This document shows, piece by piece, positions 37,512 through 63,996 of a stretch of DNA of 64,000 nt. The position numbers and the translations under genes are program-made. Source of the DNA: an uncultured Planctomycetia bacterium (GTDB taxonomy: Bacteria; Omnitrophota; Gorgyraeia; Tantalellales; Tantalellaceae). The stretch spans positions 36,103 to 100,102 of the forward strand of contig CAZNEE010000002.1 in assembly GCA_964572255.1 (NCBI GenBank), read 5' to 3'. The first letter of the stretch is position 1. Each line of letters starts with the position of its first letter. The notes under the pieces were generated by a model. It had not been told where the DNA came from, did no database searches, and saw only the letters and a list, made by a program, of their open reading frames with translations.

Positions 37512-38156
37512 TTAACTCTCCGGCTTATACATGTTAATCCGCTCTTTAAATTCTTTGACTTTTGATCTCACATCCGGAGCTTGAACTATAGCTCGTATAC
37601 TGGCTATATTCTTTGCTCCTCTTTCCAGTACAAGATCTATATTATCCAGATCTATGCCTCCTATAAAAATCACCGGCTTATTCGAAGTAGCTGCCGCTTT
37701 TTCTATATTTTCCGTGCCGATAGAATAATCTTTTGTTAAAGTGCTGAATATAGGGCCGAATGCTATATAGTTACAGTTATTTTTCTCTGCCCTTTGCAAT
37801 TCTTCAAGCGAATGTGTTGAAACCCCTATTAATTTATCCTCCCCGATGATCTTTCGTGTCTCATCCAGGGGAAATCTTTCCATATCTTCCTGCCCGAGAT
37901 GAACTCCGTCAGCATCAACTGCTTTTGCCAGATGCGGATCATCGTTGACAATGAATATAATATTATTTTTCCTGCACAATGCTGCCAACTTCCTGCCTAA
38001 CGAGATCAATTCTTCCCGGGAAGCATGTTTTTCCCTCATCTGCAGGATATCAATGCCGCCGGCGATCGCCTCTTCAACGATCTCATATGTACTCCTGCCG
38101 TTCGCATATTCTGCACTTGTCACTAAATATAAGCTGTAATCCTTAATTTTCTTCAT
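37512..38156 (-). CDS. thiE: Thiamine-phosphate synthase ThiE.
   Basis: LYLVTS, ILQMREK and DGVHLGQED motifs. Confidence 0.9.
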   Translation of the reverse strand: MKKIKDYSLYLVTSAEYANGRSTYEIVEEAIAGGIDILQMREKHASREELISLGRKLAALCRKNNIIFIVNDDPHLAKAVDADGVHLGQEDMERFPLDETRKIIGEDKLIGVSTHSLEELQRAEKNNCNYIAFGPIFSTLTKDYSIGTENIEKAAATSNKPVIFIGGIDLDNIDLVLERGAKNIASIRAIVQAPDVRSKVKEFKERINMYKPES

Positions 38157-38162
38157 CTTTAA

Positions 38163-38196
38163 ATAAAAAACCCATGCAAGCGCATGGGTTTAAATA
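38163..38196 (-). terminator. Intrinsic terminator that forms the expression platform of the TPP riboswitch.
   Basis: Minus-strand RNA CCCAUGC-GCUU-GCAUGGG followed by UUUUUUAUUU. It lies directly between the aptamer and the thiE ATG. Confidence 0.7.
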
Positions 38197-38199
38197 CTT

Positions 38200-38300
38200 T
38201 TTCTATCTCCCTACGCTGGCATTACCCAGATCAGGTTATACAGGTCTTCCGCTCGAGCGGAACTCTCAGGGCGTCGCACGCCCTCCCTGGATAAATATGT
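38200..38300 (-). promoter_or_regulatory. TPP (THI-box) riboswitch aptamer upstream of thiE-thiS-thiG-thiH-thiF.
   Basis: The minus-strand RNA contains the canonical CUGAGA motif, and ACCUGAUCUGGGUAAUGCCAGCGUAGGGA, which matches the THI-element consensus. Confidence 0.9.
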
Positions 38301-39212: not shown

Positions 39213-40388
39213 CTATTCTGCCTTAACATTTGTTTCTTGGTCCTTTAACGCTTCCTCAAGCTGCTCTTTTGTCAAATATCCCAGCTCTTTGAGAGCCTCA
39301 CCTACAGTAATGCCTTTCTTCCAATGTATTTTTAACGCTTCATCGAGCTGATGGGTCGTGATCATCTTCTTTTTAAGAAGTATCTGCCCGATCGGCTGAT
39401 AATAATCGAACATCTCTTCTTCGACCTGAAAACGCTGTAATTTCAGCGCTTCATCGTCCGTGACCGCGCGCCTATCGGCCATGTACTTGCTCCCGGGCAT
39501 CGTTTTGAGATATTTTTTCACCTCGGCGATGCTCTCGTTTATTTCAATGATGTTCTTATATTCACAAAGCTCATTTTGTATAACAAGGGCTACCGTAACG
39601 CTCATGAGAGGATGTTTCTTCATTTTGCGTGCTCTGTCTTCCGCCTTGATAAAACCCCTCATCCTCTCTTCTTTCGAATAATAAAACGGGATCACCGTAT
39701 CGAACATACATATAAAACTTCGGCATATTTGCTGGTACCTTTCGGGCGAGGTAATGAAAACAAAGTCATCCCCACCGATATGGCCTATGAAATCGCTTTT
39801 CTCGCCGCATCCTCTTACTGCCGTGGACAGCATATGAGCTGTCTGCATTATCACCCTGTCGCCCTGCAAATAACCAAATACATCATTGAAAGATTTGAAA
39901 TTATCTATATCCGCATGTCCTACCACGAACGGCTTCTTCTCATCTATCCTTTCTTTCAATACCTCTTCGATAAGTTTGCCCCCGGGAAGACCGGTCAGCG
40001 GGCTTGCGTAAAAACAGTATTTCGACCTTTTTGCCGCCATTTCTATTCTTACCCTTAGGTCCAGAACATCCACCGGTTTAAGCAGGTAATCATCGATCCC
40101 GTGTTTCAGGTCAAGAAGCTTCTTCAGTATATCGCTATGGGCAATGATCGTGATCACGGGAATATGCGCCGTGATAAAATCATGTTTAAGTAAACGGCAT
40201 ATCTCGAAGCGCTTTTCTTCCCCGGCTTCAACATCAACAACAATGATATCCGGGGATATTTTAATGATCTTCTTCTGGTCGGGTTCCGTGAAACTTTCAA
40301 AAATGGTATGATATCCCCATTTTTCAAGATGCGGAAAGATGCTTTCCTTCAATTTTTCATCTGAGGATACAAGTAGGATTCGTTTCAT
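39213..40388 (-). CDS. Response regulator: REC domain, a degenerate GGDEF domain (GGDDF), and a C-terminal MshEN/T2SSE_N-like domain.
   Basis: REC with an Asp in DIIVVDVE and KP in LLKPVD. GGDEF fold with HIGGDDFVFI. The C-terminus PIGQILLKKKMITTHQLDEALKIHWKKGITVGEALKELGYLTKEQLEEAL resembles the tandem MshEN c-di-GMP-binding motif. Confidence 0.65.
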   Translation of the reverse strand: MKRILLVSSDEKLKESIFPHLEKWGYHTIFESFTEPDQKKIIKISPDIIVVDVEAGEEKRFEICRLLKHDFITAHIPVITIIAHSDILKKLLDLKHGIDDYLLKPVDVLDLRVRIEMAAKRSKYCFYASPLTGLPGGKLIEEVLKERIDEKKPFVVGHADIDNFKSFNDVFGYLQGDRVIMQTAHMLSTAVRGCGEKSDFIGHIGGDDFVFITSPERYQQICRSFICMFDTVIPFYYSKEERMRGFIKAEDRARKMKKHPLMSVTVALVIQNELCEYKNIIEINESIAEVKKYLKTMPGSKYMADRRAVTDDEALKLQRFQVEEEMFDYYQPIGQILLKKKMITTHQLDEALKIHWKKGITVGEALKELGYLTKEQLEEALKDQETNVKAE

Positions 40389-51509: not shown

Positions 51510-51635
51510 GATGGATATAATTTTTAATATTATTACTTCTATATAGACTTGGATCGGAAAAAGATATTATATCCATAAGAGGGAACTATTTCAACTTATA
51601 TAATCAAAATATTATGATTTTTCGCCCCTGAAAAA

Positions 51636-51677
51636 TAAAAAAGGACGGCTCTTTTGCAAACCGCCCTTTTTTATTTT
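51636..51677. terminator. Bidirectional intrinsic terminator downstream of the TpsB gene.
   Basis: AAAAAAGGACGG-CTCTTTTGCAAA-CCGCCCTTTTTTATTTT: a stem with one mismatch, flanked by an A-tract and a T-tract. Confidence 0.55.
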
Positions 51678-51691
51678 ATATGAATTGCACC

Positions 51692-53521
51692 TTACTTTAT
51701 CGCAGACTCTTCAGACCCCTGCATTTCCGGCCCGACATCCGCGGCAACAGTCCTCTTTTCCACTTCTTTAGATCTCCACATTTTTCTTATTCTTGCGATC
51801 TCTGTAGGCAACTGATCTTCGAAGTTTATAGATAGATGGAATCTTGACTCAGCTCTTTCGGTAATGGGCTTGTTCCCGAGAACAAATCCCCATTCGCATC
51901 TTACCACAGCCTGATTGAATAGTTTGACTCTTATGCCCGGGCCTACACTTGCGAAAGTAGCTTCTCTTTTCTCAGTGCTTGTGTTCAATACTCCACGCCT
52001 TCTACCATGAGCCCAATCAAAGAAAACTACGCCTGTGATCTCTTCTTTGAGCGGCCTTTCGCCGTAAGGAAGTATGAAATTGTCGGGAATAAAAAAGGCC
52101 GGGATAAGAAGCTCTGCACTTGCGAGAATCGCGTTATCAGCCATGAAATCGCCGTAAGGATAACCTCTTACAGAATCTATACCGCCCATCGGAAATTCTT
52201 CCAATGTCGACAGTTTTTCTGAAGCTATCTGGCTTTTAAATTTAAACACACCATCAACCCCCCACATAAGAGGTCTTCTGTGGGTTATCCCGGAGTTAAA
52301 TTTAGTGAAGTTGTTGTCTGCCTGTCTTGTAGTGGGAACGCCACCGGGATCATTACTGCGAGCTCCCAGTCCGTTAATGCCTTGGGATATCTCCGGATAC
52401 AAATAAGTGATACCGCCAAAGCCTTTATGGATAAGGTTCGCTCCGAGCCTCAATATTCTTAAGCGGTCACGGCTTGTTGTCCCTATAGACTGTGTTGTCG
52501 TTTTATCCTTAGCGTCTAGACCAAAATATATTTCTCCAAGGTAGTCAGCTTTATTGAAAATATCCTGATAGAGAAAAACGCTGGTATTACGAACAGATGA
52601 GTTTATCCCGAAAGGTTCGTAATTCATCTTAGGAGACGACTTGGTGTAACTGTGACCGTACATCAGTGACGTCCCGAAATTCGTAAAAGGTATCCTGTGA
52701 AAGCCATATACAGACTGGAAATGCCTTCCGAATGTATACCCGGCTATTGCCGTATCGTCTACGAACAAAAAATTGTTATCACGTATCCCAAACCCGAGTC
52801 TTTCTGTTCCAGTCTGAACCGCGCCTTCCCTATCAAAAGTAGCCAGCATATGTATCGGGAATTTTGTGTCCGCCTTTAAGATTACATCGGTGGTTTCGGG
52901 CTCTGCGCCTGCGTGAAGGACAGCCTTGACCTCTCGGTCGGGATTTTTGCTCATCAGCTGAAGGTTGCGTGAAAGCTTGTCATAACTGAGAACTTCGCCT
53001 TTACGGATGTTCCAATAATTAGTAAGTCTTTCTTTATCAAACCAGTTATGATCTTCAACTTCAAGTGCTCCCATTTTGGCTTCGACCACGCGCAGCATAA
53101 CAACGCCGTCTTTTACGTCCTGTGGAGGAACGAAACATGCGGCGATAATACCTCTTTTTAAGTATTCCCTTTCGATCTGTCTTGCCAGTATGTTCAGCTC
53201 CCCAAAAGTAACTTCTCTATTCTCGTACTGCTCTAAGATCGAACGGAATTCATCCGGCGAAAAACTTTCCACGCCGACCAGTTCTATTTTTTTGATGAAA
53301 AATTTCGGGCCTTCCGGTACTTCCGGCTTTTCCTCTTCCTCGATCTCAGGCGCCTTTGGCACGACCCTCATTTCCTTCTCGACCCTTTCACGTATCGCAC
53401 GGTCGGCTTCCCTTACTGCCTGGTCCGGAGCCGGCTGAGAATACGCGAAAGAAGCGGGAAGCATCAAAACGAAAACAACTAATAAACTTGCCAGCTTCAT
53501 AGTTTTTCTCCTTGTTATCAT
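51692..53521 (-). CDS. Two-partner-secretion outer-membrane transporter (TpsB; ShlB/FhaC/HecB family).
   Basis: Signal peptide. POTRA-type segment (FFIKKIELVGVESFSPDEFRSIL...GELNILARQIEREY). 16-strand barrel region. C-terminal aromatic residue. Confidence 0.85.
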   Translation of the reverse strand: MITRRKTMKLASLLVVFVLMLPASFAYSQPAPDQAVREADRAIRERVEKEMRVVPKAPEIEEEEKPEVPEGPKFFIKKIELVGVESFSPDEFRSILEQYENREVTFGELNILARQIEREYLKRGIIAACFVPPQDVKDGVVMLRVVEAKMGALEVEDHNWFDKERLTNYWNIRKGEVLSYDKLSRNLQLMSKNPDREVKAVLHAGAEPETTDVILKADTKFPIHMLATFDREGAVQTGTERLGFGIRDNNFLFVDDTAIAGYTFGRHFQSVYGFHRIPFTNFGTSLMYGHSYTKSSPKMNYEPFGINSSVRNTSVFLYQDIFNKADYLGEIYFGLDAKDKTTTQSIGTTSRDRLRILRLGANLIHKGFGGITYLYPEISQGINGLGARSNDPGGVPTTRQADNNFTKFNSGITHRRPLMWGVDGVFKFKSQIASEKLSTLEEFPMGGIDSVRGYPYGDFMADNAILASAELLIPAFFIPDNFILPYGERPLKEEITGVVFFDWAHGRRRGVLNTSTEKREATFASVGPGIRVKLFNQAVVRCEWGFVLGNKPITERAESRFHLSINFEDQLPTEIARIRKMWRSKEVEKRTVAADVGPEMQGSEESAIK

Positions 53522-53652
53522 TATCGGATTAAAATAATATTATAATTACAACAATTTTACTATATAAAATCAGAATGTCAAACTTAAGTTTAATATTTTT
53601 AATAAGATATTAAAAAATATGCATTCCCCCATATACTGCGGATAAACAAGCA

Positions 53653-55251
53653 TTACTTTGGATATGAATAAAAACGAACGGGAGAGTTGTATGGTCCGAT
53701 TATTAAAAGCCATGCTTTTCGGCCTTTGAAATATTTCAACAATTTCCGGTTGTTTTCCTGATCCATCTCGCGGGCCCATACAATACTGGATCTGTCTATA
53801 TCGGCCTCATTATAAACCCATTCATCGCGGGGATCGTGGCCCTCCACATAACGAACGATGACCAGATGATCTCCTCCCTCTTTTTTCAATCCTTTTACAA
53901 GCTCTGTTATCTGTATATTTTGATAATGTTTCCTGAGATACTTCTGCGAAGGGAGATCGGTGAATTTCCTGACAAATAATCCGATGCATATTATCAGGAT
54001 CAAACTTACAATATATTTCCCAATATAATTCCGGCTTATTCGCACACGGGATATTACACGTAATCCCTGCATAATAAGCAAAAATACAAGACAAACTATG
54101 GGCGCCGTATAGTATGTATTAAAAAATGTTGAAAAGATAGTAGCCACTAAATAAATTAAAATCGTAAAGCACGCAAAACGCAGCCATCGATCACGGAATA
54201 TCCAAAACAATGCACATATAATAGGAATTCCTAAAATAACGCTGCCGAAAAATGTCCACATCGTTTTGAGTTTCCATATAGTCGTGCCCGTAAAGCCTTC
54301 CGGTGATAAATATCTTTCATATCGTTTCATCCTTAAATATCTTTGAAAATCAGAAATGACCTTATGGTTGTAAGTCCGGTTCAGTCTTGGTTCCTGCCAT
54401 ATAAAATGAGGTGCAATGTCATAAGTTTCTTGATGTACCTGATAAGATGTGAGGAATGCATTCCCAGTAACTCGATAATTATAATAACCCATAGCAGCAA
54501 ATATAATAATGATCACCGTTGCAATGGGCGTTATCGCAGTATTAAAAATTTCTTTGAATTTACCTTTTGTGGCTCTTTGTATTATAAATACAATTAACAC
54601 CACAAGAGCTGGTGCACAAACTACAAAGCCCTCCCATGGCCTGCTATTCGCCATAACAGCCAAACCTAATGCAAGAACAAGTGAGATCTTAAAATCAGGC
54701 TTTCTGATCAAGCGCCGCCATGCACCAAAAAATAAAGCGCCGCCAAAAGCAGCAACAGCGCCACCCATATAACTTTGACCCCAGTAACTTGCTATTCCAA
54801 GATATAGATGAAATATTGAGATCAATCCCCCTATTAACGCCCACCTGGCAGGAATCCATGCCTGCAGCATCCAGGTTATTGCCGCGCACATGAGCGCCAT
54901 ACTTAACCAAACGCCAACAATAGGATATCCCGTAAGAACCTGCCCCAAAGCAAGAAAAAGGCCCTGCCCCGGAGGGAACTTGGAAGCATAGGTCGGCTGC
55001 TGATTAATATGAAAACTTTCAAAATGGACCCACATAGGGTGAGTCGGATTAGTCAAGCGCCCTTGACTAAATGTATCGGCAGCCAATAGATAGCTGTGCT
55101 CATCAGTAAAATATGGTTCCGGAACTCCTTTAGTAAGAGTGATGATCGCGCTTCCGGCAAATGCGAGAACAAAAACGAGAATAACCGAAGCCGTCCTGCG
55201 CCTGGCAAAACGTCCGAATTGACGCCAAATCATATGAGGAAAATTAATCAT
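53653..55251 (-). CDS. GT-C fold polyprenyl-phosphate-sugar-dependent glycosyltransferase (ArnT GT83 / PMT GT39-like).
   Basis: About 11-12 TM helices. DE motif in the first periplasmic loop (YFTDEHSY). 532 aa. AT-rich codon usage. Confidence 0.75.
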   Translation of the reverse strand: MINFPHMIWRQFGRFARRRTASVILVFVLAFAGSAIITLTKGVPEPYFTDEHSYLLAADTFSQGRLTNPTHPMWVHFESFHINQQPTYASKFPPGQGLFLALGQVLTGYPIVGVWLSMALMCAAITWMLQAWIPARWALIGGLISIFHLYLGIASYWGQSYMGGAVAAFGGALFFGAWRRLIRKPDFKISLVLALGLAVMANSRPWEGFVVCAPALVVLIVFIIQRATKGKFKEIFNTAITPIATVIIIIFAAMGYYNYRVTGNAFLTSYQVHQETYDIAPHFIWQEPRLNRTYNHKVISDFQRYLRMKRYERYLSPEGFTGTTIWKLKTMWTFFGSVILGIPIICALFWIFRDRWLRFACFTILIYLVATIFSTFFNTYYTAPIVCLVFLLIMQGLRVISRVRISRNYIGKYIVSLILIICIGLFVRKFTDLPSQKYLRKHYQNIQITELVKGLKKEGGDHLVIVRYVEGHDPRDEWVYNEADIDRSSIVWAREMDQENNRKLLKYFKGRKAWLLIIGPYNSPVRFYSYPK

Positions 55252-56146
55252 AGCCTCTTTTAAAGTTTTTCGGTAACACCTCGCTCACAGGACGTGCCTT
55301 AAACCCCAGATCCTTCTGAGCCTCAGACGGATCAAGATCAGCATCCTGAATTATGCCGGCTATCATCTGCGGCCTGAGCGGAGGGTGCTTCATGGAAATT
55401 TTCATAAAAAAAGCAATAAAATAACATAACCAGGCCGGCAGGCGGATTATCGGTTTATTTGACATGCCCATCAACTTCAGGCAAAGGCGCGTGAAATCAA
55501 GTATCGATATGACTTCACTTCCGCTAAAGTTATAAATTTTCCCGTATGCGTTTTTATTCCCGTACACCGCCAAAAGCCCTTCAGCTATGTCGTCTACATG
55601 AACTGGTCTTTTTTTAGCTTCACCCTTACCGATAAACGGAACTATGGGGAACTTTTTCAAATAATCCAGATAATTGTTGAACTCTTCCCCTCCAGTATCG
55701 CTGTAAACCAGTGTGGGCCTTATAACAGTATAGTTAAGACCGGACGCTCTTACGATCTCTTCGGCTTTCCATTTTGACAGGTTGTATGCCGCTTTCTTCG
55801 GATAAACAACGGAAGCGGATGAGATATACACGAAATGTTCAACGCCCGCATCTTTAGCCTCCTCAACAATATTCCTTGTCCCGTTAACATTCACTCTTTC
55901 GAACACGCCTTCATCCAAACTTAAAATAACAGCGGCTAAATGGTAAACAGTGGAAACTCCTTTACATATTCCTTTAATGTTCTCTTTATTTGATATGTCG
56001 CCGTACCGTACATCCACCCGCGCGTCTCTTTCAAGCGGCGTTCTGTCGGAAGGTAGGGCAAGAACACGGATCCTGTGCCCTTCTTTAAGCCACTCGTCAA
56101 CGAGTCTCGTCCCTATTACCCCGGTCCCGCCGGTTATAAGGATCAT
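55244..56146 (-). CDS. NAD(P)-dependent sugar epimerase/reductase (extended SDR).
   Basis: MILITGGTGVIG Rossmann motif. YxxxK in NLSKWKAEE. Confidence 0.8.
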   Translation of the reverse strand: MILITGGTGVIGTRLVDEWLKEGHRIRVLALPSDRTPLERDARVDVRYGDISNKENIKGICKGVSTVYHLAAVILSLDEGVFERVNVNGTRNIVEEAKDAGVEHFVYISSASVVYPKKAAYNLSKWKAEEIVRASGLNYTVIRPTLVYSDTGGEEFNNYLDYLKKFPIVPFIGKGEAKKRPVHVDDIAEGLLAVYGNKNAYGKIYNFSGSEVISILDFTRLCLKLMGMSNKPIIRLPAWLCYFIAFFMKISMKHPPLRPQMIAGIIQDADLDPSEAQKDLGFKARPVSEVLPKNFKRGYD

Positions 56147-56904
56147 TCGGAGCCTCCCTCATGCTCTTTACACAATCTCCGATAATGCCCTGAAAGATAT
56201 TTGAACATCACCCCTAATATCCTGAAACCATAAGTTATGGGATTAAGGTATGATACTTCATCGGCATAGCGCGTTGGTATCGGATGCTCTCCTATTCCCA
56301 GGCCAAGCGTTCTGGCGCATGCTATGACCTCGACATCGAAATCAAAACTTTCACTTAATCTATCAAATGGTATATTGTCAAGCGCTCTTCGGCTGTAAAA
56401 AATAAAACCGCTGTGATAATCTGTCAGCTTAAGCCGAAAAACAATGTTTTCGAAAAAGGTAAGGGCCCGGTTTGCAATAAACTTATATAACGGCATCTTG
56501 CCCGAAAGAGCCGTGCCTGAAGAGATGCGGGAACCCTGAAGAATATCGTACCCCTTTTTTTTCATTGTCTCAACGCAGGCAGGAATATATTCCGGAGGAT
56601 ACTGGCCGTCCGAATGAAGGCAAACAGCCGCGTCAGAACCGTCATCTCTAGATAGTTCAAGTCCCTTTTTGACGGCAACACCATATCCCCGGTTTTTATC
56701 AAAATGAACAGCCTTTATGGTGTCTATTCTCCGCGCAAGTCCATCAATTACCTTACGTGTATCGTCTTCGGAACCATCGTTTATGATCCATATCGACGCT
56801 ATATTTCCCCTTATATCTTCAGGAATACGGTTTATTACGTTTTCGATATGACGGGCAGCATTGTATGCGGGCATGAAAATGGATATTTTATTTTCAAGGG
56901 GCAT
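56143..56904 (-). CDS. GT2 polyprenyl-phosphate glycosyltransferase (ArnC/DPM1-like).
   Basis: ISIFMPAYN, INDGSEDDT and DGQYPPEY motifs of the GT2 family. 253 aa with no C-terminal TM helix. Confidence 0.8.
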   Translation of the reverse strand: MPLENKISIFMPAYNAARHIENVINRIPEDIRGNIASIWIINDGSEDDTRKVIDGLARRIDTIKAVHFDKNRGYGVAVKKGLELSRDDGSDAAVCLHSDGQYPPEYIPACVETMKKKGYDILQGSRISSGTALSGKMPLYKFIANRALTFFENIVFRLKLTDYHSGFIFYSRRALDNIPFDRLSESFDFDVEVIACARTLGLGIGEHPIPTRYADEVSYLNPITYGFRILGVMFKYLSGHYRRLCKEHEGGSE

Positions 56905-57991
56905 TTTCTTGTACGCCTTTTAGTTTATACTTCTCGACATAATAGGTTATGGTCTCGCGAAGGGTCTGTTCAAGATCGTATCTCGGTTCCCACCCGAGAA
57001 GATTGCGGACTTTCGAGAAATCCCCCACCCTTCTGTCGCTGTCCTGGTAACCTTCACCGTAAAACTCTTTTGATGAGACGTTCTCCGTGCGAAAAGAAGA
57101 GTCTTTCCCTTGAGGATAAACTTCCTTGTATATAGTTATCATCTGCTGGGCAAGATTTTTTATTGTGGTTTCATTGTGGGGGTTCCCTACATTAAAGATT
57201 TGCCCTTTCGCTTTTTCAGGTTTTTTTATCATCAGCTCAATAGCATCAACAGCATCTTCGATATAGGTAATGGTTCTCTTACTTTCTCCGCCGTCGACAA
57301 GCTGAAGAGGCCTGTCCAAAAGAAGGTCACCTATAAAACATGCCATAACCCTCGGCGTACCTTCACCTTCTATCCCGGGGATATAGTCCATTTCGGGCCC
57401 TATGAAATTAAAAGGGCGAATGATCGTATAATCAAGTTCTTTCTCAAAATTATACGCATAAATAATGCGTTCTAAAAGTTCCTTAGCGCATGCATAGATC
57501 CACCTCTGGATGCGAACCGGTCCGAGAACAAGGGGCGTAGTCTCTTCTTTAAGCAGGAAATAATCAAGATCTCCCTTTTCATCCTTATCCTTCAGGAAAC
57601 GTGAAAGAGTCATTCCGTAAACCTCGCAAGTAGAAAAATGCACCAGCCACTTCTTGTACTTGTGGCACATCTTCACAAGCTCCAGGGAATGCAAGAAATT
57701 GATCTCAACAACTTCTAATGGAATTTTATTGTAAAGAGCTGGATTACATAAAGCCGCAAGCGAGATCACACAATCACTTTTTTCAACATACTGGCGGAGC
57801 TTTTCACTGTCCTTGATATCGACATTATGATAAGAAAACCTTTCATGTCCCAGGAACTGCTTGATCTTCCTGTCATCTATATCTATGCCGCATATCTTAT
57901 AATTTCCGTCAACAAGAAAACGTTTCACAAGATGCGAGCCGATAAATCCTCCGCAGCCTACCATGCAGATTGTTTCCACTTTTTTACTCAT
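56894..57991 (-). CDS. UDP-glucuronate oxidative decarboxylase-like dehydrogenase (ArnA C-terminal-domain homolog).
   Basis: Strong similarity to the ArnA decarboxylase domain: VGCGGFIGSHLVKRFL...YKICGIDI, ISLAALCNPALY, FSTCEVYGM. Confidence 0.75.
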   Translation of the reverse strand: MSKKVETICMVGCGGFIGSHLVKRFLVDGNYKICGIDIDDRKIKQFLGHERFSYHNVDIKDSEKLRQYVEKSDCVISLAALCNPALYNKIPLEVVEINFLHSLELVKMCHKYKKWLVHFSTCEVYGMTLSRFLKDKDEKGDLDYFLLKEETTPLVLGPVRIQRWIYACAKELLERIIYAYNFEKELDYTIIRPFNFIGPEMDYIPGIEGEGTPRVMACFIGDLLLDRPLQLVDGGESKRTITYIEDAVDAIELMIKKPEKAKGQIFNVGNPHNETTIKNLAQQMITIYKEVYPQGKDSSFRTENVSSKEFYGEGYQDSDRRVGDFSKVRNLLGWEPRYDLEQTLRETITYYVEKYKLKGVQENAP

Positions 57992-58103
57992 AATCTTAGC
58001 CTTTTATTGTGTAAAAATATTTGTAATGTATTAGTATTATACACAAATTTACCATCTTTTTAGAGTATTATCAAATTTTGAGATGTTTTTTTTGCAAGAT
58101 ACG

Positions 58104-58141
58104 GGAGCCAGGCCTATCTAAATGGCCTGGCTCCGTTTTTG
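58104..58141. terminator. Stem-loop/terminator-like hairpin between the TpsA stop and the glycosylation cassette.
   Basis: GGAGCCAGGCC-tatctaaat-GGCCTGGCTCC followed by GTTTTT on the plus strand. The T-tract is on the plus side only, so function on the minus-strand transcript is uncertain. Confidence 0.4.
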
Positions 58142-58150
58142 TATATTAGG

Positions 58151-61100
58151 TTAAAAGATCTGTGCAGTATTTCCTTCCACTTGCACTTCTCCTTTAAATG
58201 CGTCCGGATCGAATTTTTTCTTTTTCCCGGGGCCGAATCCAACTCCCTGAAGCTGGACAATATCGCTCATATCGTCACCCAAAGCAGCTATAGGTACCGG
58301 GAATTCAAGCATAGGAGCGTCAACGATCTTTGCATTCTGACCGCTGTCACTTTCCTGTGTCCAGTTCAGCTGCAGGAACGGTGCCTCGCCCGCGACCGGC
58401 GGTTCTGGAACCACGGGTGTGGGCGGTTCTTCCCCGCATATCCTGCATTCCCTGAGCATTGGAGGCGCGCCCTGGGGCGGCATCCAGATATTCTCAAAAT
58501 CCCAGCATGCAAATGTTGATTGCTGTTTCATTTGGGAATCATCCTTTGCATCGATCCCGCAAAGATCACCGCTATCGGAATCATCCAGCCCTGCATTATG
58601 TGTCGGCGTCTGCAGCCAATAGCAGGAAGAATACGGACCTCCATAGTCATAACCGACAAATCCGCCTGCGGAGCTGCTCGTTATCACTTCTCCCGTTGAA
58701 TAACAATTGGTCGTCGCTGTTCCGCCGCCGTTATACCCGCCGTTCTCATTAAGACCGAACAGTCCTCCTATAGCCCATCCACTTTGAACTGTCACATCCC
58801 CTGTAGCATAGCAATCCGCAACCGGAGTTCTGTCGTTATAACCTACCAATCCGCCAAAATAGGTGCCATCGCAACTGCCGAACACGTCCCCGGTAGCATA
58901 GGACCTGGTTATCTCGGAATTATATGTTTTGCCGACCAGTCCGCCGAATCTGTAAAGACAGCAGCATTCTTCCTCATGCTTTACATCCGCAGTTGAATGA
59001 GAACAATATATCTCAGAATCGTTAAGCCTTCCGACCAGTCCGCCGACGTTATACTCGCCTCTTACGACCCCTCCTGAGGAACATCCCAGGATCCGGCTTT
59101 CTTCCTGTACATCGCCTGCCAAAGCCCCTACATGCGTATCCCCTGTTATATCCGCATTTACAAGATCTACTTTTCCGACCGTAGCATCTACGAGAAGACC
59201 GAAAAGACCGACATTCTCTTCGTACGGCCTGTTTATGTAGAGGTTGCTTATAGTATAGCAGTCGCCGCAGAAAAATCCGGTGAACGGGCCGGTTTCATCG
59301 TCGTCACCCGTATTATCCCCGATGGGCTCAAATCCCAGATAGAACATTTGACCGTTCTGGCCGTTTTGTCCGTTTAGATCAAGGGAAGCTACACAATTAT
59401 AGCCGTACGGATTCCAGGTTTTGGTCGCGCTTGCGTCAATATCATTTGCCAGTTTGAAACTCGCATCAAGCGCGTATTTCATGAACTGTAGTTCATTCAC
59501 GTTGTGTATCAGGAAGTAGCATGCGTCAGGGCCTTCGCACCCTACTCCGCCGTCCGGCAGATGCACCAGCATGTCCTCCCATACAAGATGCGGATAGCTT
59601 CCGACAGTCCAAAGACCCAGAAAATCCCAGCCTTCAAAAGTTGCTTCCTGCTGCATCTCGGTGTTATTTTTCGCTGTGACCCCGGTAAGATCACCGGGAT
59701 CGCCGGAATCCTGCAGGCCTGCATTATGTGCCGGTGTCTGGAGCCAGTAGCATGAAGAATATGGCCCGCCGTAGTTTTCATAACCTACAAAACCTCCGAC
59801 ATTCCAGTTTCCGGTTACCTCTCCGGTAGAATAACATCTCGTTATATTGTAACTGGAAGAGGTATAGCCGTAACCTATAAAACCTCCGACATTATTATCA
59901 CCGTTAACATTTCCCTGTGCGTAACAATCCCGGATAGAAGTTTCATAATTATAGCCGATAAGCCCGCCTATTTCTCCTTGTGTGCAATCTTCATCAACAA
60001 GAGGGAATATTGTGCCTTCACTGCCGCTCTGGGCTGTTTGTCCTGGCGTGTTTATATTTCCTTTTGCATACGATCTGCGTATATCCGAATAACTGGCATG
60101 GCCGACAAGGCCTCCGACATCGTAATCGCCGAAAACCTCCCCGGTCGCACCGGAATGCCTGATATCGGATGAACCGAGAGAACCCACGAGCCCTCCGACG
60201 TACCTATATCCTTTCACCTTGCCCGTCGCATATGAACTCTCGACAGTTGAATCCTCACAATAACCCACTAGGCCCCCGCGATAATCGCGATCGCAATAAT
60301 ATGGATCATATCCTTCATAAACAACATTCGGCAGGACATCGCCCGTTGCGTGACAGCAGGTTATATCGCCGTATTCATTATAACCCACAAGGCCTCCGGC
60401 ATAATCCTGGTCAAAATACACATTCCCAATAGCATAACAATCTATTATAGGCGACGCATAATTATACCCTATAAGGCCTCCGGCATAATTCCCTCCATCC
60501 AACCACCGTGGGCCATACACGTCCCCTGTAGCATAAGAACGGATGATCGTACACATGGCTTCGTAGTTCTGCCCCACAAGGCCGCCTATATATTCTCCTC
60601 CGCGCACTTTGCCTGTTGCGTGGGAATCGGTGATCGTGCCTCCGTAATTATAACCTACCAATCCGCCGACCGCTTGAGCATAATCACCCAGGACCTCACC
60701 GGTAGCATAACAGTTTGTTATCGTTGATGAATTTTCATTACCGCCAACAAGGCCTCCAAGTCCAAATTGATAGTCATAACTCATGCCTTCAACTTTTCCC
60801 GTAGCATGAGAATCTGTGATAGAGGAACTTACATTACGACCCACGAGACCGCCGCCGTATTCTCCATACACTTCAACTGCGCCTGTGGCATAACAATTAA
60901 TGATCGTATCTTCAGCTTCAAAATTTCCTCCTACTAAGCCTCCTACGCAGTCATCGCCTGATACATCGCCCGAGGCATTTGAACCGGTAATTGTGGACCC
61001 TTCGTTATGCCCTATCAATCCTCCGACATAATCACCAGTAGAGCTTACATCTCCCTGAGCAGAACAATTTGTGATCGTGGATCCATCTTCATTATATCCT

Positions 61101-62818
61101 ATGAGTCCTCCAACATAATCAGCATTTCCTTCACCATAATCTCCAATGACCTCGGCATTAGTATGGACATTGGTTATGGGAGTATCTTCATTACGACCCA
61201 CCAAAGCTCCAACATATCTGCCGCCGGTTACATTTCCCTCTAATGTAAGATCTTTTATCCAGGCAGCCTCATCGGTTTGAGCGAATAACCCCACATAATA
61301 GGTAAAGGGCCTGTCGATAGTGAAATTACTTATGGTTTTATTGTTCCCGTCAAAACTTCCTTCAAAATCGCCTCCGATCGGCTCAAATCCCTGGCCGCCG
61401 TTCCAATCCTCTGTCGCAATCGCATCGATGTTATTAGCAAGCTTATAATGCGCATTATCATCGTCATCCACTGCCTGGAGTCCATTTATATCAAAGATCA
61501 AATATGGATCTCCCATGGTCCCTGCGCCCACTTCTCTAACTAACTCGGCATGATAATTTGAGCGGACCGTATCAACGCTGAAAGCTTTTGTGTTGTCTGA
61601 TTCATATTCTATATCAGCAGTATTTGAAGAGTTCAATTCCAAAAGCCCCACATTTGTTATATCCCCGTCAAGCGCTGAATCTTCTCCGGCAAATAATGTT
61701 AGATCAAAACCCCCGCCAGCAAGATCATTGCCCTCCATATCGATAAATCCGTCATTATCTGCATCGCTGTCCGCATTAAGCGTTGTATCGCCCGTCATGT
61801 TTACGTTACCGCCAAGTTCGATATCTTCCACATCATTGTACACACCCGCAATGCTGCCTGCCAGGGTGAGCGCACCATCAAGGTTTTCGAAAAGCGAATC
61901 ACCGACAACGGTCTTTCCGCCAAGCAAACACGATGCGCCTTTCTCAGTCAGAGTTTCAGCTTCCAAAGTCCCAAGGCTTACAACAGCTCCATCAGTATCG
62001 ATATTAACGGTATTTGCTCTTACGAATCCTTCCAAGTTGATAGCTTTAGTAAATATCTCACCGATGCTTTCCGCTTTTAAGATTACAACTCCGCCTTCGG
62101 CATCAATTGTGCCCGTACTTTTTATCTGATCAGTTATCGGGTTGCCTTCATAGTCTTTAATGCCAGAGGCAACTTTTTTATCTATAGCAACAGAGATAAG
62201 ACCACCACCAGAGATATCAAGTTTAACGGCATCACCGGATGCAAGAACTATCTTGCCGATAGGCGCTGTTATTATTCCCTTGTTTTCGATGGCGCCTGCG
62301 ATCAATACACCGAACCCGCCGTCATGGATCTTGATGTCTCCTTCGTTAAGCAATAACTTCTCAGCCTGATCTTCGGTAATCTTCTGAAAAAGATGATTAC
62401 CGCTTAAGAAATCAGAATTGAGTATATCCCGCGTAGACAGAATAAGACCCGCCGCATCGATATTAGCTGCAGGCCCCACATAAATGCCGGAAGGGTTAAC
62501 GAGAATAAATACACCGTTACAACTAAGTCCTCCCATTAACTGACTAGCGGAATCGCCCAACACCCTGTTGAGGATCTCGCTGTCAACGGACGGCAATTTT
62601 ACTACTACCGTTTCATTTTCCATGATGTCAAAAGACGAGTAATTGACAATAGCATTGTCACTCGCCTCGATGACCATGGTCGTCGGATCGGTATACTCGA
62701 TATTCGCCTCTCCGGATACCACCTCCTCGACATTGGGAAGCGGGTAGGTGTTGTACGTACACGTAAATGTAAGCACCAGCACCAGTGAAATCATTTTTGT
62801 TAATTTTGTGATCTTCAT
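58151..62818 (-). CDS. TpsA-type exoprotein: N-terminal TPS secretion domain followed by dozens of ~27-aa GLUG-like repeats in two large duplicated blocks.
   Basis: N-terminal TPS domain (ILNRVLGDSASQLMGGLSCNGVFILVNPSGIYVGPAANIDAAGLILSTRDI, NPNGI-like). Repeats NCYATG.V.G..YVGGLVG.N..S.ITDSHATGKV. Each block ends with SCYWLQTP.HNAGL.DS...TF.(G/C)WDF. GGAGGA Shine-Dalgarno. Confidence 0.8.
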   Translation of the reverse strand: MKITKLTKMISLVLVLTFTCTYNTYPLPNVEEVVSGEANIEYTDPTTMVIEASDNAIVNYSSFDIMENETVVVKLPSVDSEILNRVLGDSASQLMGGLSCNGVFILVNPSGIYVGPAANIDAAGLILSTRDILNSDFLSGNHLFQKITEDQAEKLLLNEGDIKIHDGGFGVLIAGAIENKGIITAPIGKIVLASGDAVKLDISGGGLISVAIDKKVASGIKDYEGNPITDQIKSTGTIDAEGGVVILKAESIGEIFTKAINLEGFVRANTVNIDTDGAVVSLGTLEAETLTEKGASCLLGGKTVVGDSLFENLDGALTLAGSIAGVYNDVEDIELGGNVNMTGDTTLNADSDADNDGFIDMEGNDLAGGGFDLTLFAGEDSALDGDITNVGLLELNSSNTADIEYESDNTKAFSVDTVRSNYHAELVREVGAGTMGDPYLIFDINGLQAVDDDDNAHYKLANNIDAIATEDWNGGQGFEPIGGDFEGSFDGNNKTISNFTIDRPFTYYVGLFAQTDEAAWIKDLTLEGNVTGGRYVGALVGRNEDTPITNVHTNAEVIGDYGEGNADYVGGLIGYNEDGSTITNCSAQGDVSSTGDYVGGLIGHNEGSTITGSNASGDVSGDDCVGGLVGGNFEAEDTIINCYATGAVEVYGEYGGGLVGRNVSSSITDSHATGKVEGMSYDYQFGLGGLVGGNENSSTITNCYATGEVLGDYAQAVGGLVGYNYGGTITDSHATGKVRGGEYIGGLVGQNYEAMCTIIRSYATGDVYGPRWLDGGNYAGGLIGYNYASPIIDCYAIGNVYFDQDYAGGLVGYNEYGDITCCHATGDVLPNVVYEGYDPYYCDRDYRGGLVGYCEDSTVESSYATGKVKGYRYVGGLVGSLGSSDIRHSGATGEVFGDYDVGGLVGHASYSDIRRSYAKGNINTPGQTAQSGSEGTIFPLVDEDCTQGEIGGLIGYNYETSIRDCYAQGNVNGDNNVGGFIGYGYTSSSYNITRCYSTGEVTGNWNVGGFVGYENYGGPYSSCYWLQTPAHNAGLQDSGDPGDLTGVTAKNNTEMQQEATFEGWDFLGLWTVGSYPHLVWEDMLVHLPDGGVGCEGPDACYFLIHNVNELQFMKYALDASFKLANDIDASATKTWNPYGYNCVASLDLNGQNGQNGQMFYLGFEPIGDNTGDDDETGPFTGFFCGDCYTISNLYINRPYEENVGLFGLLVDATVGKVDLVNADITGDTHVGALAGDVQEESRILGCSSGGVVRGEYNVGGLVGRLNDSEIYCSHSTADVKHEEECCCLYRFGGLVGKTYNSEITRSYATGDVFGSCDGTYFGGLVGYNDRTPVADCYATGDVTVQSGWAIGGLFGLNENGGYNGGGTATTNCYSTGEVITSSSAGGFVGYDYGGPYSSCYWLQTPTHNAGLDDSDSGDLCGIDAKDDSQMKQQSTFACWDFENIWMPPQGAPPMLRECRICGEEPPTPVVPEPPVAGEAPFLQLNWTQESDSGQNAKIVDAPMLEFPVPIAALGDDMSDIVQLQGVGFGPGKKKKFDPDAFKGEVQVEGNTAQIF

Positions 62819-62848
62819 CTCTATCCTCCTGTTTAATTAAAAACAAAT

Positions 62849-62885
62849 AAAAAAAACCCATAGCCAAAATGACTATGGGTTTTTA
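62849..62885 (-). promoter_or_regulatory. Terminator-like hairpin inside the TpsA 5' leader (possible attenuator).
   Basis: AAAAAAAACCCATAG-ccaaaatga-CTATGGGTTTTT, about 25 nt upstream of the TpsA Shine-Dalgarno/ATG. A-tract and T-tract on both sides. Confidence 0.45.
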
Positions 62886-63446
62886 AACTTAATACCAAAG
62901 TATATTTTTAAAGCTAAAACTATTTAGCTCTTCTAAACATAATAATCTCTGTAATAAAAATAATTGTTTCATTCTCTCACCTTCGGTAACTGACTGCCCT
63001 GGCCCTAATGGCTTTAGGCTCTTTAGTTTTGCGCCCCTTGTTTTCACAAGGTTTGCCTTTATCGAGCAAGAGCTCGATAAAGCTGCTGAATTATAAAAAA
63101 GCGATTTCTTTCTATCTTTTGTATCTACTAAAAGTATATCATATTTTACTTAAATGTAAAGATTTGCAACTATTTTTTTATATTTTTCTTAATTTTGTTT
63201 TTTTTAACAATTATCTATAACATCTTCACTTCCGCGAAAAAGAACTATACTTGCAAGCCTTTATAAGCCAAAGGCTTTTGAAAAGAGAGTAGTTAGAACC
63301 CTAACGAAATTTTTAAAAAAAGCTAACTTTTTTTAAAAAAATTTTTTGTTGCGATATTTTTTGACTTTTCCTTTGCATGTCTATTTTTTAAAAATCATTG
63401 ATACATAAATTTAGGTTAAGATATAAAATATCTACATATTTAGCTC

Positions 63447-63519: not shown

Positions 63520-63996
63520 ATGAAGAAGATAATCACTTTAATAACTATTATTTCCTTATTGTGTACTCCCTGCTTTGCTCAGGGATTAATGGGTATCCCT
63601 GCATCCGTTACGACGCCTACTGAGTTTGTATCGTGGCTGAAGGACGGATTTTATTATCATTTGGAAGCTAATGATGATTGGCAAAGCCCTGAAGAAACTA
63701 TTCGCTTCAAAAGCGGCGACTGCGAGGACTACGCCCTTTTGGCCTCCGCGTTCCTGTCAAATATCGGTTATACGGAAAATTACGTAATCATTGTTAAGTT
63801 CTCAGGATTATACACAAGACATGCCATATGCGTTTTTCGGGAAAAGAACGGCTCTTACAGTTTTATCTCTAACAAGAAAATGTTCCGGACAGGCCAAAAA
63901 AGCGTCAGATCCGCGATCAACAAATATTACCCGGATTGGGAAGAGATCACATTTTCAACTCACAGCAAGAAATACTTCAAGACAATCCATCGTTAA
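63520..63996 (+). CDS. Secreted transglutaminase-like cysteine-peptidase-fold protein (BTLCP-like).
   Basis: Signal peptide. GDCEDYALLASAFL core Cys motif and a downstream His (RHAICVF). 158 aa. Confidence 0.6.
   Translation: MKKIITLITIISLLCTPCFAQGLMGIPASVTTPTEFVSWLKDGFYYHLEANDDWQSPEETIRFKSGDCEDYALLASAFLSNIGYTENYVIIVKFSGLYTRHAICVFREKNGSYSFISNKKMFRTGQKSVRSAINKYYPDWEEITFSTHSKKYFKTIHR

Follow-up and report, generated by a model that had tools for sequence, protein, structure and literature searches.

All known glycosylation of adhesins secreted by the type V route is, to our knowledge, cytoplasmic, being performed by HMW1C and EtpC in two-partner secretion (TPS) systems and by Aah and TibC, which are autotransporter heptosyltransferases. 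In Streptococcus mutans, the genes for PgfS, PgfE, PgfM1 and PgfM2 are arranged around cnm, such that a family 2 glycosyltransferase (GT2), an epimerase and GT-C enzymes are encoded beside the protein that is modified. Bacterial apiose metabolism has so far been represented by a few enzymes and one operon of the Leloir type, and the biochemically verified bacterial UDP-apiose synthases (UAS) are 43-49% identical to AtAXS1, the UDP-apiose/UDP-xylose synthase of Arabidopsis (PMC5607165). For lipid-linked pentoses, the three-component system of Citrobacter includes an epimerase from the superfamily of short-chain dehydrogenases/reductases (SDR) which acts on undecaprenyl-phosphate pentose (PMC11127046). 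The present work examines a locus of six open reading frames (ORFs), all on the minus strand, at positions 51692-62818 of a 64,000-nt stretch of the Omnitrophota contig CAZNEE010000002.1 (the window, to which coordinates refer unless another locus is named), in which the genes of an exoprotein, tpsA, and its transporter, tpsB, are separated by a cassette of four sugar genes. The explanation favoured here, to which we give an even chance, is that an envelope-glycan module of the Gtr/Arn kind was inserted into an adhesin locus, where it is perhaps co-expressed with the adhesin.

The layout of the locus is as described in an earlier note on this DNA, which was made from the sequence alone. Six genes lie head to tail on one strand, and the TPS partners, which that note placed about 4.6 kb apart with only sugar genes between them, are separated by 4,629 bp from the tpsA stop to the tpsB start, an interval that holds the four sugar genes only. 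These overlap or abut one another by 11, 4 and 8 nt, and the cassette is set off by gaps of 159 bp from tpsA and 131 bp from tpsB. The reported lack of an ArnB aminotransferase and an ArnA formyltransferase was borne out: neither an aminotransferase nor a formyltransferase, a deformylase or an ORF for a small flippase came up within the locus in the ORF list or in the Pfam and NCBIfam scans of the six products. The statement that TPS operons are normally just tpsB-tpsA proved too simple, since three-gene TPS operons with glycosyltransferases or accessory genes are known (PMC5422565). The components are all of known kinds, and no description of their combination was found in the literature searched, in keeping with the view that the arrangement is new; the nearest accounts there are of the Leloir-type apiose operon of Xanthomonas pisi and of the three-component pentofuranose systems.

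The case for an insertion comes first from the TPS side. Five related TPS loci with TpsB proteins of 55-58% identity were inspected (L084/L085, L086, L087, L172 and L173), and the sugar cassette is absent from all five of these Omnitrophota loci. In L086 the gene order is tpsA-tpsB-purF-small ORF-icd-guaA-purL, with tpsB convergent with tpsA, 28 bp apart and with no sugar genes; the genes that lie beyond tpsB in the window are purF, an isocitrate/isopropylmalate dehydrogenase-family gene, guaA, purL and purQ. The lack of the cassette in five relatives, one of which has matching purF-icd-guaA-purL synteny, thus argues for a lineage-specific insertion. The tpsB gene is also inverted relative to its relatives, whereby all six genes are co-directional.

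The cassette itself was approached from both of its ends. In 80 metagenome loci anchored on homologues of its first enzyme, the synthase, counts were limited to those with enough flanking sequence. In 30 of 58 such loci the gene immediately downstream of the synthase encodes a GT2 ortholog (50-64% identity), and a colinear synthase-GT2-SDR trio, with SDR proteins of 45-61% identity, is present in 18 of 47 (among them L094, L095, L099-L101, L103-L105, L110-L113, L116, L118 and L120, where in the long ones the synthase occupies about 10001-11050). Neither TPS genes nor members of the GT-C family to which the last cassette enzyme belongs were found in any of the 80. A further 80 genome loci carry homologues of the GT-C protein (38-47% identity), mostly in Acidobacteriota and also in Methylomirabilis, Planctomycetota, Thermodesulfobacteriota and Binatia. 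Within 10 kb of these, no homologue of TpsA, TpsB, the synthase or the SDR was detected (0/80), and a more distant GT2 (34-36% identity) was present in five. As far as these relatives indicate, the four-gene unit is a mosaic, in which a widespread trio has been joined to a widespread GT-C family, and this combination was not seen elsewhere in the loci surveyed. The middle genes thus occur largely independently of TPS genes, which goes against the coupling of cassette and adhesin that the earlier note had proposed.

The neighbourhoods of these homologues are mainly of interest for the type of glycan involved. Downstream of the trio in Chitinivibrionales-like loci come genes for a secreted protein, an MBOAT protein, two SGNH proteins resembling AlgX, a PD40 protein and a transporter of the MFS/Acatn type, a set that looks like an undescribed cluster for an O-acetylated glycan containing apiose or xylose. 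For the GT-C family, a glycan setting is clearest in the metagenome locus L003 (8362-11773), where two tandem paralogues lie inside an O-antigen-like cluster with a Wzm/Wzt ABC transporter, Bac_transf, GT2-GtrA_DPMS_TM, DUF1420 and an aminotransferase; in L089, a homologue is situated between PMT-family genes and sulfatases. The genes that neighbour the GT-C gene in Acidobacteriota (AMP-ligase, diacylglycerol kinase, VKOR, RuvC, PFK and CstA) were considered as a clue to the acceptor and set aside: they are housekeeping genes, and hence reflect synteny only and are uninformative in this respect. Different polytopic membrane proteins with a DE or DxD motif after the first transmembrane (TM) segment adjoin the synthase and SDR in L091, L105, L116 and L118. 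In L091 (2232-5850), which has the closest synthase homologue (63% identity), a 522-aa polytopic 'RDE' protein precedes the synthase and an SDR ortholog (52% identity) follows it, with no GT2 between, such that the parts are wired differently. Homology of the 532-aa GT-C protein with this 522-aa protein and with clusters c4 and c12 was rejected (hhalign probability below 4%).

The synthase had been called ArnA-decarboxylase-like. It is indeed an extended SDR of the type that decarboxylates UDP-glucuronic acid (UDP-GlcA), and it passes the NF008872 model (311 bits, cutoff 294), yet it is nearer to AtAXS1 than to ArnA. AtAXS1 (6h0n) is by far its best solved structure, with 379 bits and 49% identity across 358 aa versus 230 bits for ArnA, and the two share a 14-residue insertion which ArnA lacks. 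Judged by the signature residues that separate UDP-apiose/xylose synthase (UAXS), ArnA and UXS (Table 3 of PMC12820599), Cys82 and Cys122 align with Cys100 and Cys140 of UAXS, positions taken by Ala and Ser in both ArnA and UXS, while the motifs AALC82NP, STC122EVYG and QR163WIY166ACAK170 match the Thr/Tyr/Lys triad, Glu141 and Arg182 of the AtUAXS enzyme. Many close homologues are named 'UDP-apiose/xylose synthase' by JGI, and NCBI names them after a Ralstonia enzyme. Taken together, these comparisons make UDP-apiose and/or UDP-xylose the most likely product, and a UDP-4-keto-pentose a less likely one. Membership in the pathway for 4-amino-4-deoxy-L-arabinose (Ara4N) was ruled out by the score against the ArnA equivalog (287 bits, cutoff 777) and the lack of ArnB, ArnD and ArnE/F; together with the failure to match the family models of ArnA, ArnC and ArnT, this upholds the prediction that the sugar is not Ara4N.

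The next two enzymes would carry the pentose onto a lipid and tailor it. The top NCBIfam matches of the GT2 are PpgS, PgfS (65 bits, cutoff 500) and the Dol-P-hexose transferase, with AglJ also matched, all of them under their curated cutoffs, and the ArnC equivalog is under its cutoff as well (37.6 bits, cutoff 529). Among PDB sequences, only DPMS (5mlz) and GtrB (5ekp) are matched at E < 1e-6, with ArnC also listed. The GT2 is on these grounds a probable polyprenyl-phosphate pentosyltransferase related to DPMS, GtrB and ArnC. The second SDR resembles HpnA, 3-beta-HSD and NDUFA9-type enzymes and is predicted to be a tailoring epimerase or reductase; since an SDR epimerase is documented to act on undecaprenyl-phosphate pentose in the Citrobacter system, tailoring at the level of the lipid is conceivable here as well.

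A different reading of the GT2 would dispense with the lipid-linked route altogether. The enzyme would then be an ordinary Leloir transferase, taking UDP-xylose or UDP-apiose directly as donor for an acceptor at the cytoplasmic face (cf. XpXylT of Xanthomonas pisi), and the GT-C protein would be an unrelated neighbour with another donor. The GT2 falls short of every polyprenyl-phosphate synthase cutoff, has weak matches to PgaC and TuaG and possesses no TM anchor; many trio loci have no recognisable GT-C gene nearby, and the known bacterial apiose operon employs Leloir glycosyltransferases (PMC6193724). This proposal must nevertheless contend with the fact that the top three NCBIfam matches and the best PDB matches of the GT2 are polyprenyl-phosphate glycosyltransferases, that translational coupling ties the GT-C gene to the trio, and that other synthase loci carry the above-mentioned polytopic DE/DxD proteins beside the synthase and SDR. 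We consider it distinctly unlikely.

The last enzyme of the cassette, the 532-aa protein (from Met7, at 55233, according to the start used by gene callers), had been described as an ArnT/PMT-like GT-C enzyme with a periplasmic DE motif. The motif is borne out: D50-E51 is invariant in 41 aligned family members and lies directly after TM1 (residues 19-41), in the first extracytoplasmic loop, behind an Arg-rich N-terminus. The likeness to ArnT and to protein O-mannosyltransferases (PMT) applies at the level of the fold, where PMT is as near as ArnT, and does not extend to sequence membership in GT39 or GT83. No Pfam match was obtained even at E = 5, including PMT and PMT_2 (PF02366 and PF13231), nor any NCBIfam match, and a profile of the family matched nothing among all PDB sequences, ArnT included; membership in the GT39/PMT or ArnT families was accordingly rejected. 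The AlphaFold model, built from the family alignment (pLDDT 93.3, pTM 0.92), displays the polytopic fold common to solved GT-C enzymes, with ArnT, ALG, OST and Aft nearly equal to Pmt4 in the fold search. By its modelled fold and acidic motif, the protein is predicted to be a GT-C glycosyltransferase, a fold that, as modelled, cannot tell protein from lipid or glycan acceptors. Its family comprises more than 7,600 proteins at E <= 1e-3, with a best non-self match of 47% identity, and it thus stands for a very large GT-C family with neither a Pfam model nor a known function.

The two partners themselves are conventional. The TPS domain and GLUG-like repeats that had been assigned to TpsA were both recovered: its secretion domain matches PF05860 (77.9 bits, cutoff 33.5) and TIGR01901 (59.4 bits, cutoff 29.1) and follows a hydrophobic N-terminus seen in the translation, and the Glug model (PF07581) scores 14 stretches, where about 20 'GGLVG...(C/S)YATG' repeats can be counted by eye. 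TpsB combines ShlB-type POTRA and Omp85 barrel domains (PF08479, 66.5 bits; PF03865, 61.5 bits; PF01103, 32.9 bits), and its nearest homologues, 55-61% identical, include many named ShlB/FhaC/HecB proteins of Candidatus Omnitrophota. These names, along with the shared synteny, support the assignment of the window to Omnitrophota. From these domains, tpsA and tpsB are predicted to form a two-partner secretion (type Vb) pair. Of the 36 cysteines of TpsA, many recur at one fixed position of the GLUG repeat ('NCYATG'), in a repeat region of about residues 570-1400; passengers of TPS systems are believed to traverse the periplasm unfolded, and such a load is unusual for them.

The earlier note had proposed that the cassette O-glycosylates TpsA in transit through the periplasm. 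In such a scheme the GT-C enzyme would transfer the lipid-linked pentose to the unfolded exoprotein before or during its export by TpsB, in a periplasmic counterpart of the cytoplasmic glycosylation by HMW1C and EtpC. The position of the cassette speaks for it: the four genes are exactly between the partners, on one strand made uniform by the inversion of tpsB, and no canonical terminator was called between tpsA and the terminator of tpsB itself. That a GT-C gene may be found beside its own protein substrate is also illustrated by the S. mutans genes around cnm. Further precedent comes from TfpW and pilin, as far as the account in a preprint goes (bioRxiv 10.1101/2020.04.19.049825), and it is established that TPS adhesins can be glycosylated and are stabilised thereby (PMC5422565). 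The one link between TpsA and the cassette sugar is, however, adjacency, and the arrangement was refound neither in the 5 related TPS loci nor in the 160 cassette-anchored loci. The GLUG repeats, which had been termed Ser/Thr-rich, are not so: serine and threonine make up 13.3% of TpsA and 13-15% of the GLUG region, the richest 30-aa window holds 10 of them, and a composition scan revealed no dedicated Ser/Thr-rich acceptor tract. The fold comparison favours a protein acceptor no more than a lipid or glycan, a hairpin and promoter-like sites divide the transcription units, and the GT-C homologues (38-47% identity) occur in genomes and contexts that have no TPS genes, an indication of a more general acceptor. 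O-glycosylation of TpsA is thus possible though doubtful, and the fuller version, by which polyprenyl-phosphate apiose or xylose would be attached during secretion and the whole switched on with the adhesin by a riboswitch, is rather doubtful. If true, the apiosylation of TpsA would provide the first case of a type V secreted protein glycosylated in the periplasm from a lipid-linked donor, as well as the first bacterial protein apiosylation, and a periplasmic GT-C route would change the view of how TPS passengers pass through the periplasm.

The riboswitch in question, of the cyclic di-GMP (c-di-GMP) I class, occupies the tpsA leader and is followed by an intrinsic terminator, presumed to be its expression platform (Table 1). 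When the leader is folded to its energy minimum (z = -5.1), the terminator hairpin is retained, and no clear anti-terminator alternative emerges. The riboswitch (RF01051, 60.7 bits) also precedes tpsA in L084/L085, where the order is riboswitch-tpsA-FecR-CHASE2-GGDEF with tpsB convergent, and it may thus be regarded as part of the ancestral adhesin system. Downstream of tpsA, the GC-rich hairpin (-25.6 kcal/mol, z = -5.3) was not called by the terminator scan and may be an attenuator, a 3' stabiliser of the mRNA or a bidirectional terminator; a T run is located on its opposite strand. Together with the promoter-like sites, the hairpin suggests that tpsA, the cassette and tpsB could be transcribed separately, and transcripts that start at the riboswitch-controlled promoter may also run on into the cassette and tpsB.

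Table 1. Genes, RNA elements and candidate regulatory sites of the TPS locus, and other features of the window
Feature	Position	Strand	Details
tpsA	58151-62818	-	1555 aa; PF05860, TIGR01901, PF07581
UDP-GlcA decarboxylase-type extended SDR (synthase)	56894-57991	-	365 aa; NF008872
GT2	56143-56904	-	253 aa; PF00535
Second SDR (extended)	55244-56146	-	300 aa
GT-C fold protein (predicted)	53653-55251	-	532 aa; no Pfam/NCBIfam match
tpsB	51692-53521	-	609 aa; POTRA_2, ShlB, Omp85
c-di-GMP-I riboswitch aptamer, tpsA leader	62982-63067	-	RF01051 76.5 bits, gathering score 35; full-length
Intrinsic terminator, presumed expression platform	62884-62852	-	15-bp stem and U tract; 33 nt before tpsA ATG; also delimited as 62842-62884
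GC-rich hairpin	58104-58134	-	perfect 11 bp; 17 nt past tpsA stop; no U tract
Promoter-like site before cassette	58046-58074	-	TTGATA-17-TAAATT, TATAAT just downstream; consensus match only
Sigma-70-like promoter-like site before tpsB	53554-53581	-	TTGACA-16-TAAAAT; 11/12 consensus positions
Intrinsic terminator after tpsB	51632-51677	-	inverted repeat and T run; closes locus before purF
DUF553 secreted transglutaminase-like gene, divergent from tpsA	63520-63996	+	PF04473 38 bits
Response-regulator-GGDEF gene	39213-40388	-	
Thiamine pyrophosphate (TPP) riboswitch	38191-38299	-	79.9 bits
Thiamine-phosphate synthase gene	37512-38156		
1681-aa ORF	17943-22988	-	no Pfam match

Additional genes around the locus relate to c-di-GMP. 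The DUF553 protein encoded divergently from tpsA also matches the LapG/BTLCP family (PF06035, 22.6 bits), under the cutoff. DUF553 genes adjoin tpsB in L087 (14629-15150) and L172 (12121-12600), and the gene is part of the conserved adhesin locus and not of the sugar cassette. Genes for FecR and CHASE2-GGDEF lie upstream of tpsA on the contig, just past the end of the window. The DUF553 gene, the FecR and CHASE2-GGDEF genes (present in L001 and L084/L085) and the riboswitch are together reminiscent of the CdrAB-LapG circuit for adhesin release, and a response-regulator-GGDEF gene represents a further source of c-di-GMP in the region.

This resemblance opens the way to a non-covalent form of coupling. 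By analogy with CdrA and Psl of Pseudomonas aeruginosa, the cassette could decorate a surface glycan (lipopolysaccharide, LPS, or exopolysaccharide) that anchors or binds the GLUG adhesin, adhesin and ligand being co-produced at high c-di-GMP. The riboswitch and its LapG-like and GGDEF neighbours, which recall the CdrAB circuit (PMC2847200, PMC5422565), and the glycan-type contexts of the cassette families in other bacteria would fit such a scheme. There is, however, no indication of binding between GLUG repeats and a glycan that bears pentose, the cassette is dispensed with in relatives that have the same adhesin system, and the co-transcription that the scheme presumes is hypothetical, so that this form of coupling is considered unlikely.

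The insertion of an envelope-glycan module may account for the observations in the following manner. The ancestral Omnitrophota adhesin system would have consisted of the riboswitch and terminator, tpsA and a nearby tpsB, beside purF-icd-guaA-purL, with the LapG-like transglutaminase-fold gene, FecR and CHASE2-GGDEF as neighbours. In one lineage only, a translationally coupled module of four genes would have been inserted between tpsA and tpsB. Its UAS-type SDR, of which the family is established, would convert UDP-GlcA to UDP-apiose and/or UDP-xylose; the DPMS/GtrB-like GT2 would load the pentose onto polyprenyl phosphate; the second SDR might tailor the sugar, speculatively on the lipid carrier as with Citrobacter ORF13; and, after flipping, the GT-C enzyme, known by its fold and acidic motif, would move the pentose to an acceptor at the periplasmic face. 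The identities of the four genes are consistent with this route from UDP-GlcA to periplasmic transfer, as the earlier note had outlined it. Since each part of the module is widespread without TPS genes, a general envelope glycoconjugate (LPS or another surface glycan) is the most likely acceptor, rather than TpsA. As the cassette is downstream of the riboswitch-controlled tpsA, partial co-expression could link the decoration of surface sugars to the 'sticky' state at high c-di-GMP.

Several points weigh against this explanation. The acceptor of the cassette sugar is conjectural, and the cassette contains no flippase gene of the GtrA, ArnE/F, SMR or MATE type. The GT2 matches to polyprenyl-phosphate sugar synthases are all under curated cutoffs, and no GT-C partner is apparent within 10 kb of the Chitinivibrionales-like trio, so that the lipid-linked step is putative. 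As for the insertion itself, the GC content of the cassette and its GC content at third codon positions (GC3) are within about 2 standard deviations of the window mean, such that no foreign composition is evident, and repeats flanking the cassette were looked for and not found, so that the insertion may not be recent. The same-strand insertion exactly between the partners and the inversion of tpsB are what would be expected if co-expression with the adhesin had been selected, so that a purely accidental neighbourhood is not established either.

An attached or host-dependent lifestyle has been proposed for Omnitrophota, and control of a TPS adhesin at the level of a c-di-GMP riboswitch in this phylum bears on that proposal. 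The coupling of synthase, GT2, SDR and GT-C enzyme points to an undescribed pathway for decorating the envelope with lipid-linked apiose or xylose. Elsewhere in the window, the TPP riboswitch upstream of the thiamine-phosphate synthase gene is an ordinary arrangement. The 1681-aa ORF precedes a CitMHS/TrkA-C transporter gene; since this gene is a transporter and not TpsB, there is no second TPS pair there.

Among known systems, the locus resembles HMW1ABC and EtpBAC (PMC3983070, PMC5422565, PMC11463764) in being a TPS locus with extra glycosylation genes. HMW1C and EtpC, however, belong to GT41, are soluble and work in the cytoplasm, where they attach hexoses from UDP-sugars to TpsA by N-glycosylation ahead of its export, whereas the route proposed here is periplasmic and lipid-linked, and no match to the HMW1C-like (GT41) family was obtained for the six proteins in Pfam or NCBIfam. 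TfpW, which places D-arabinofuranose on pilin, can be likened in arrangement to the present case, with a GT-C enzyme encoded beside a surface protein and, as predicted here, a pentose donor; the substrates of TfpW and of the Pgf enzymes differ in that they are not passengers of a TPS system and carry defined acceptor regions, either Ser/Thr-rich or at the C-terminus. The c-di-GMP-controlled TPS adhesin with a transglutaminase-fold protein and a diguanylate cyclase nearby recalls CdrAB-LapG (PMC2847200, PMC5422565), with the difference that control here is by a riboswitch and not FleQ, that the LapG-like match is under the Pfam cutoff, and that CdrAB has no sugar cassette.

On the side of the sugar, the synthase compares well with the bacterial UDP-apiose synthases in its identity to AtAXS1, and a GT2 gene follows it as in the X. 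pisi operon (Smith & Bar-Peled 2017, 2018; PMC5607165, PMC6193724). That operon encodes soluble Leloir glycosyltransferases (the GT90 ApiT and a PF13704-type GT2) and neither an SDR nor a GT-C enzyme (PMC6193724), and its study found no conserved operon, whereas the synthase-GT2-SDR trio described here is conserved in many metagenome loci. The Arn system (PmrHFIJKLM) combines an oxidative UDP-GlcA decarboxylase of the ArnA C-terminal superfamily with a GT2 that acts on undecaprenyl phosphate and a GT-C enzyme, much as predicted for the cassette, where the gene order is the order of the pathway; unlike Arn, the cassette lacks ArnB, the ArnA formyltransferase domain, ArnD and ArnE/F, and its synthase has the Cys/Cys pair in place of Ala/Ser. 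The Gtr systems and ORF15/14/12 with ORF13 of Citrobacter youngae (Kelly et al. 2024, PMC11127046) share with it a lipid-phosphate donor, a periplasmic GT-C enzyme, a pentose, an auxiliary SDR and a GtrB/DPMS-like GT2, as far as these functions are predicted here, and its GT-C gene, which overlaps or abuts that of the SDR, is encoded with the donor synthase as in Gtr-type systems. It departs from them (PMC11127046) in lacking a flippase gene, in employing a GT-C enzyme of a different family, in drawing its donor from UDP-GlcA through a UAS-type synthase instead of from 5-phosphoribosyl pyrophosphate (PRPP) or UDP-glucose, and in residing within a TPS adhesin locus rather than an O-antigen or prophage region.

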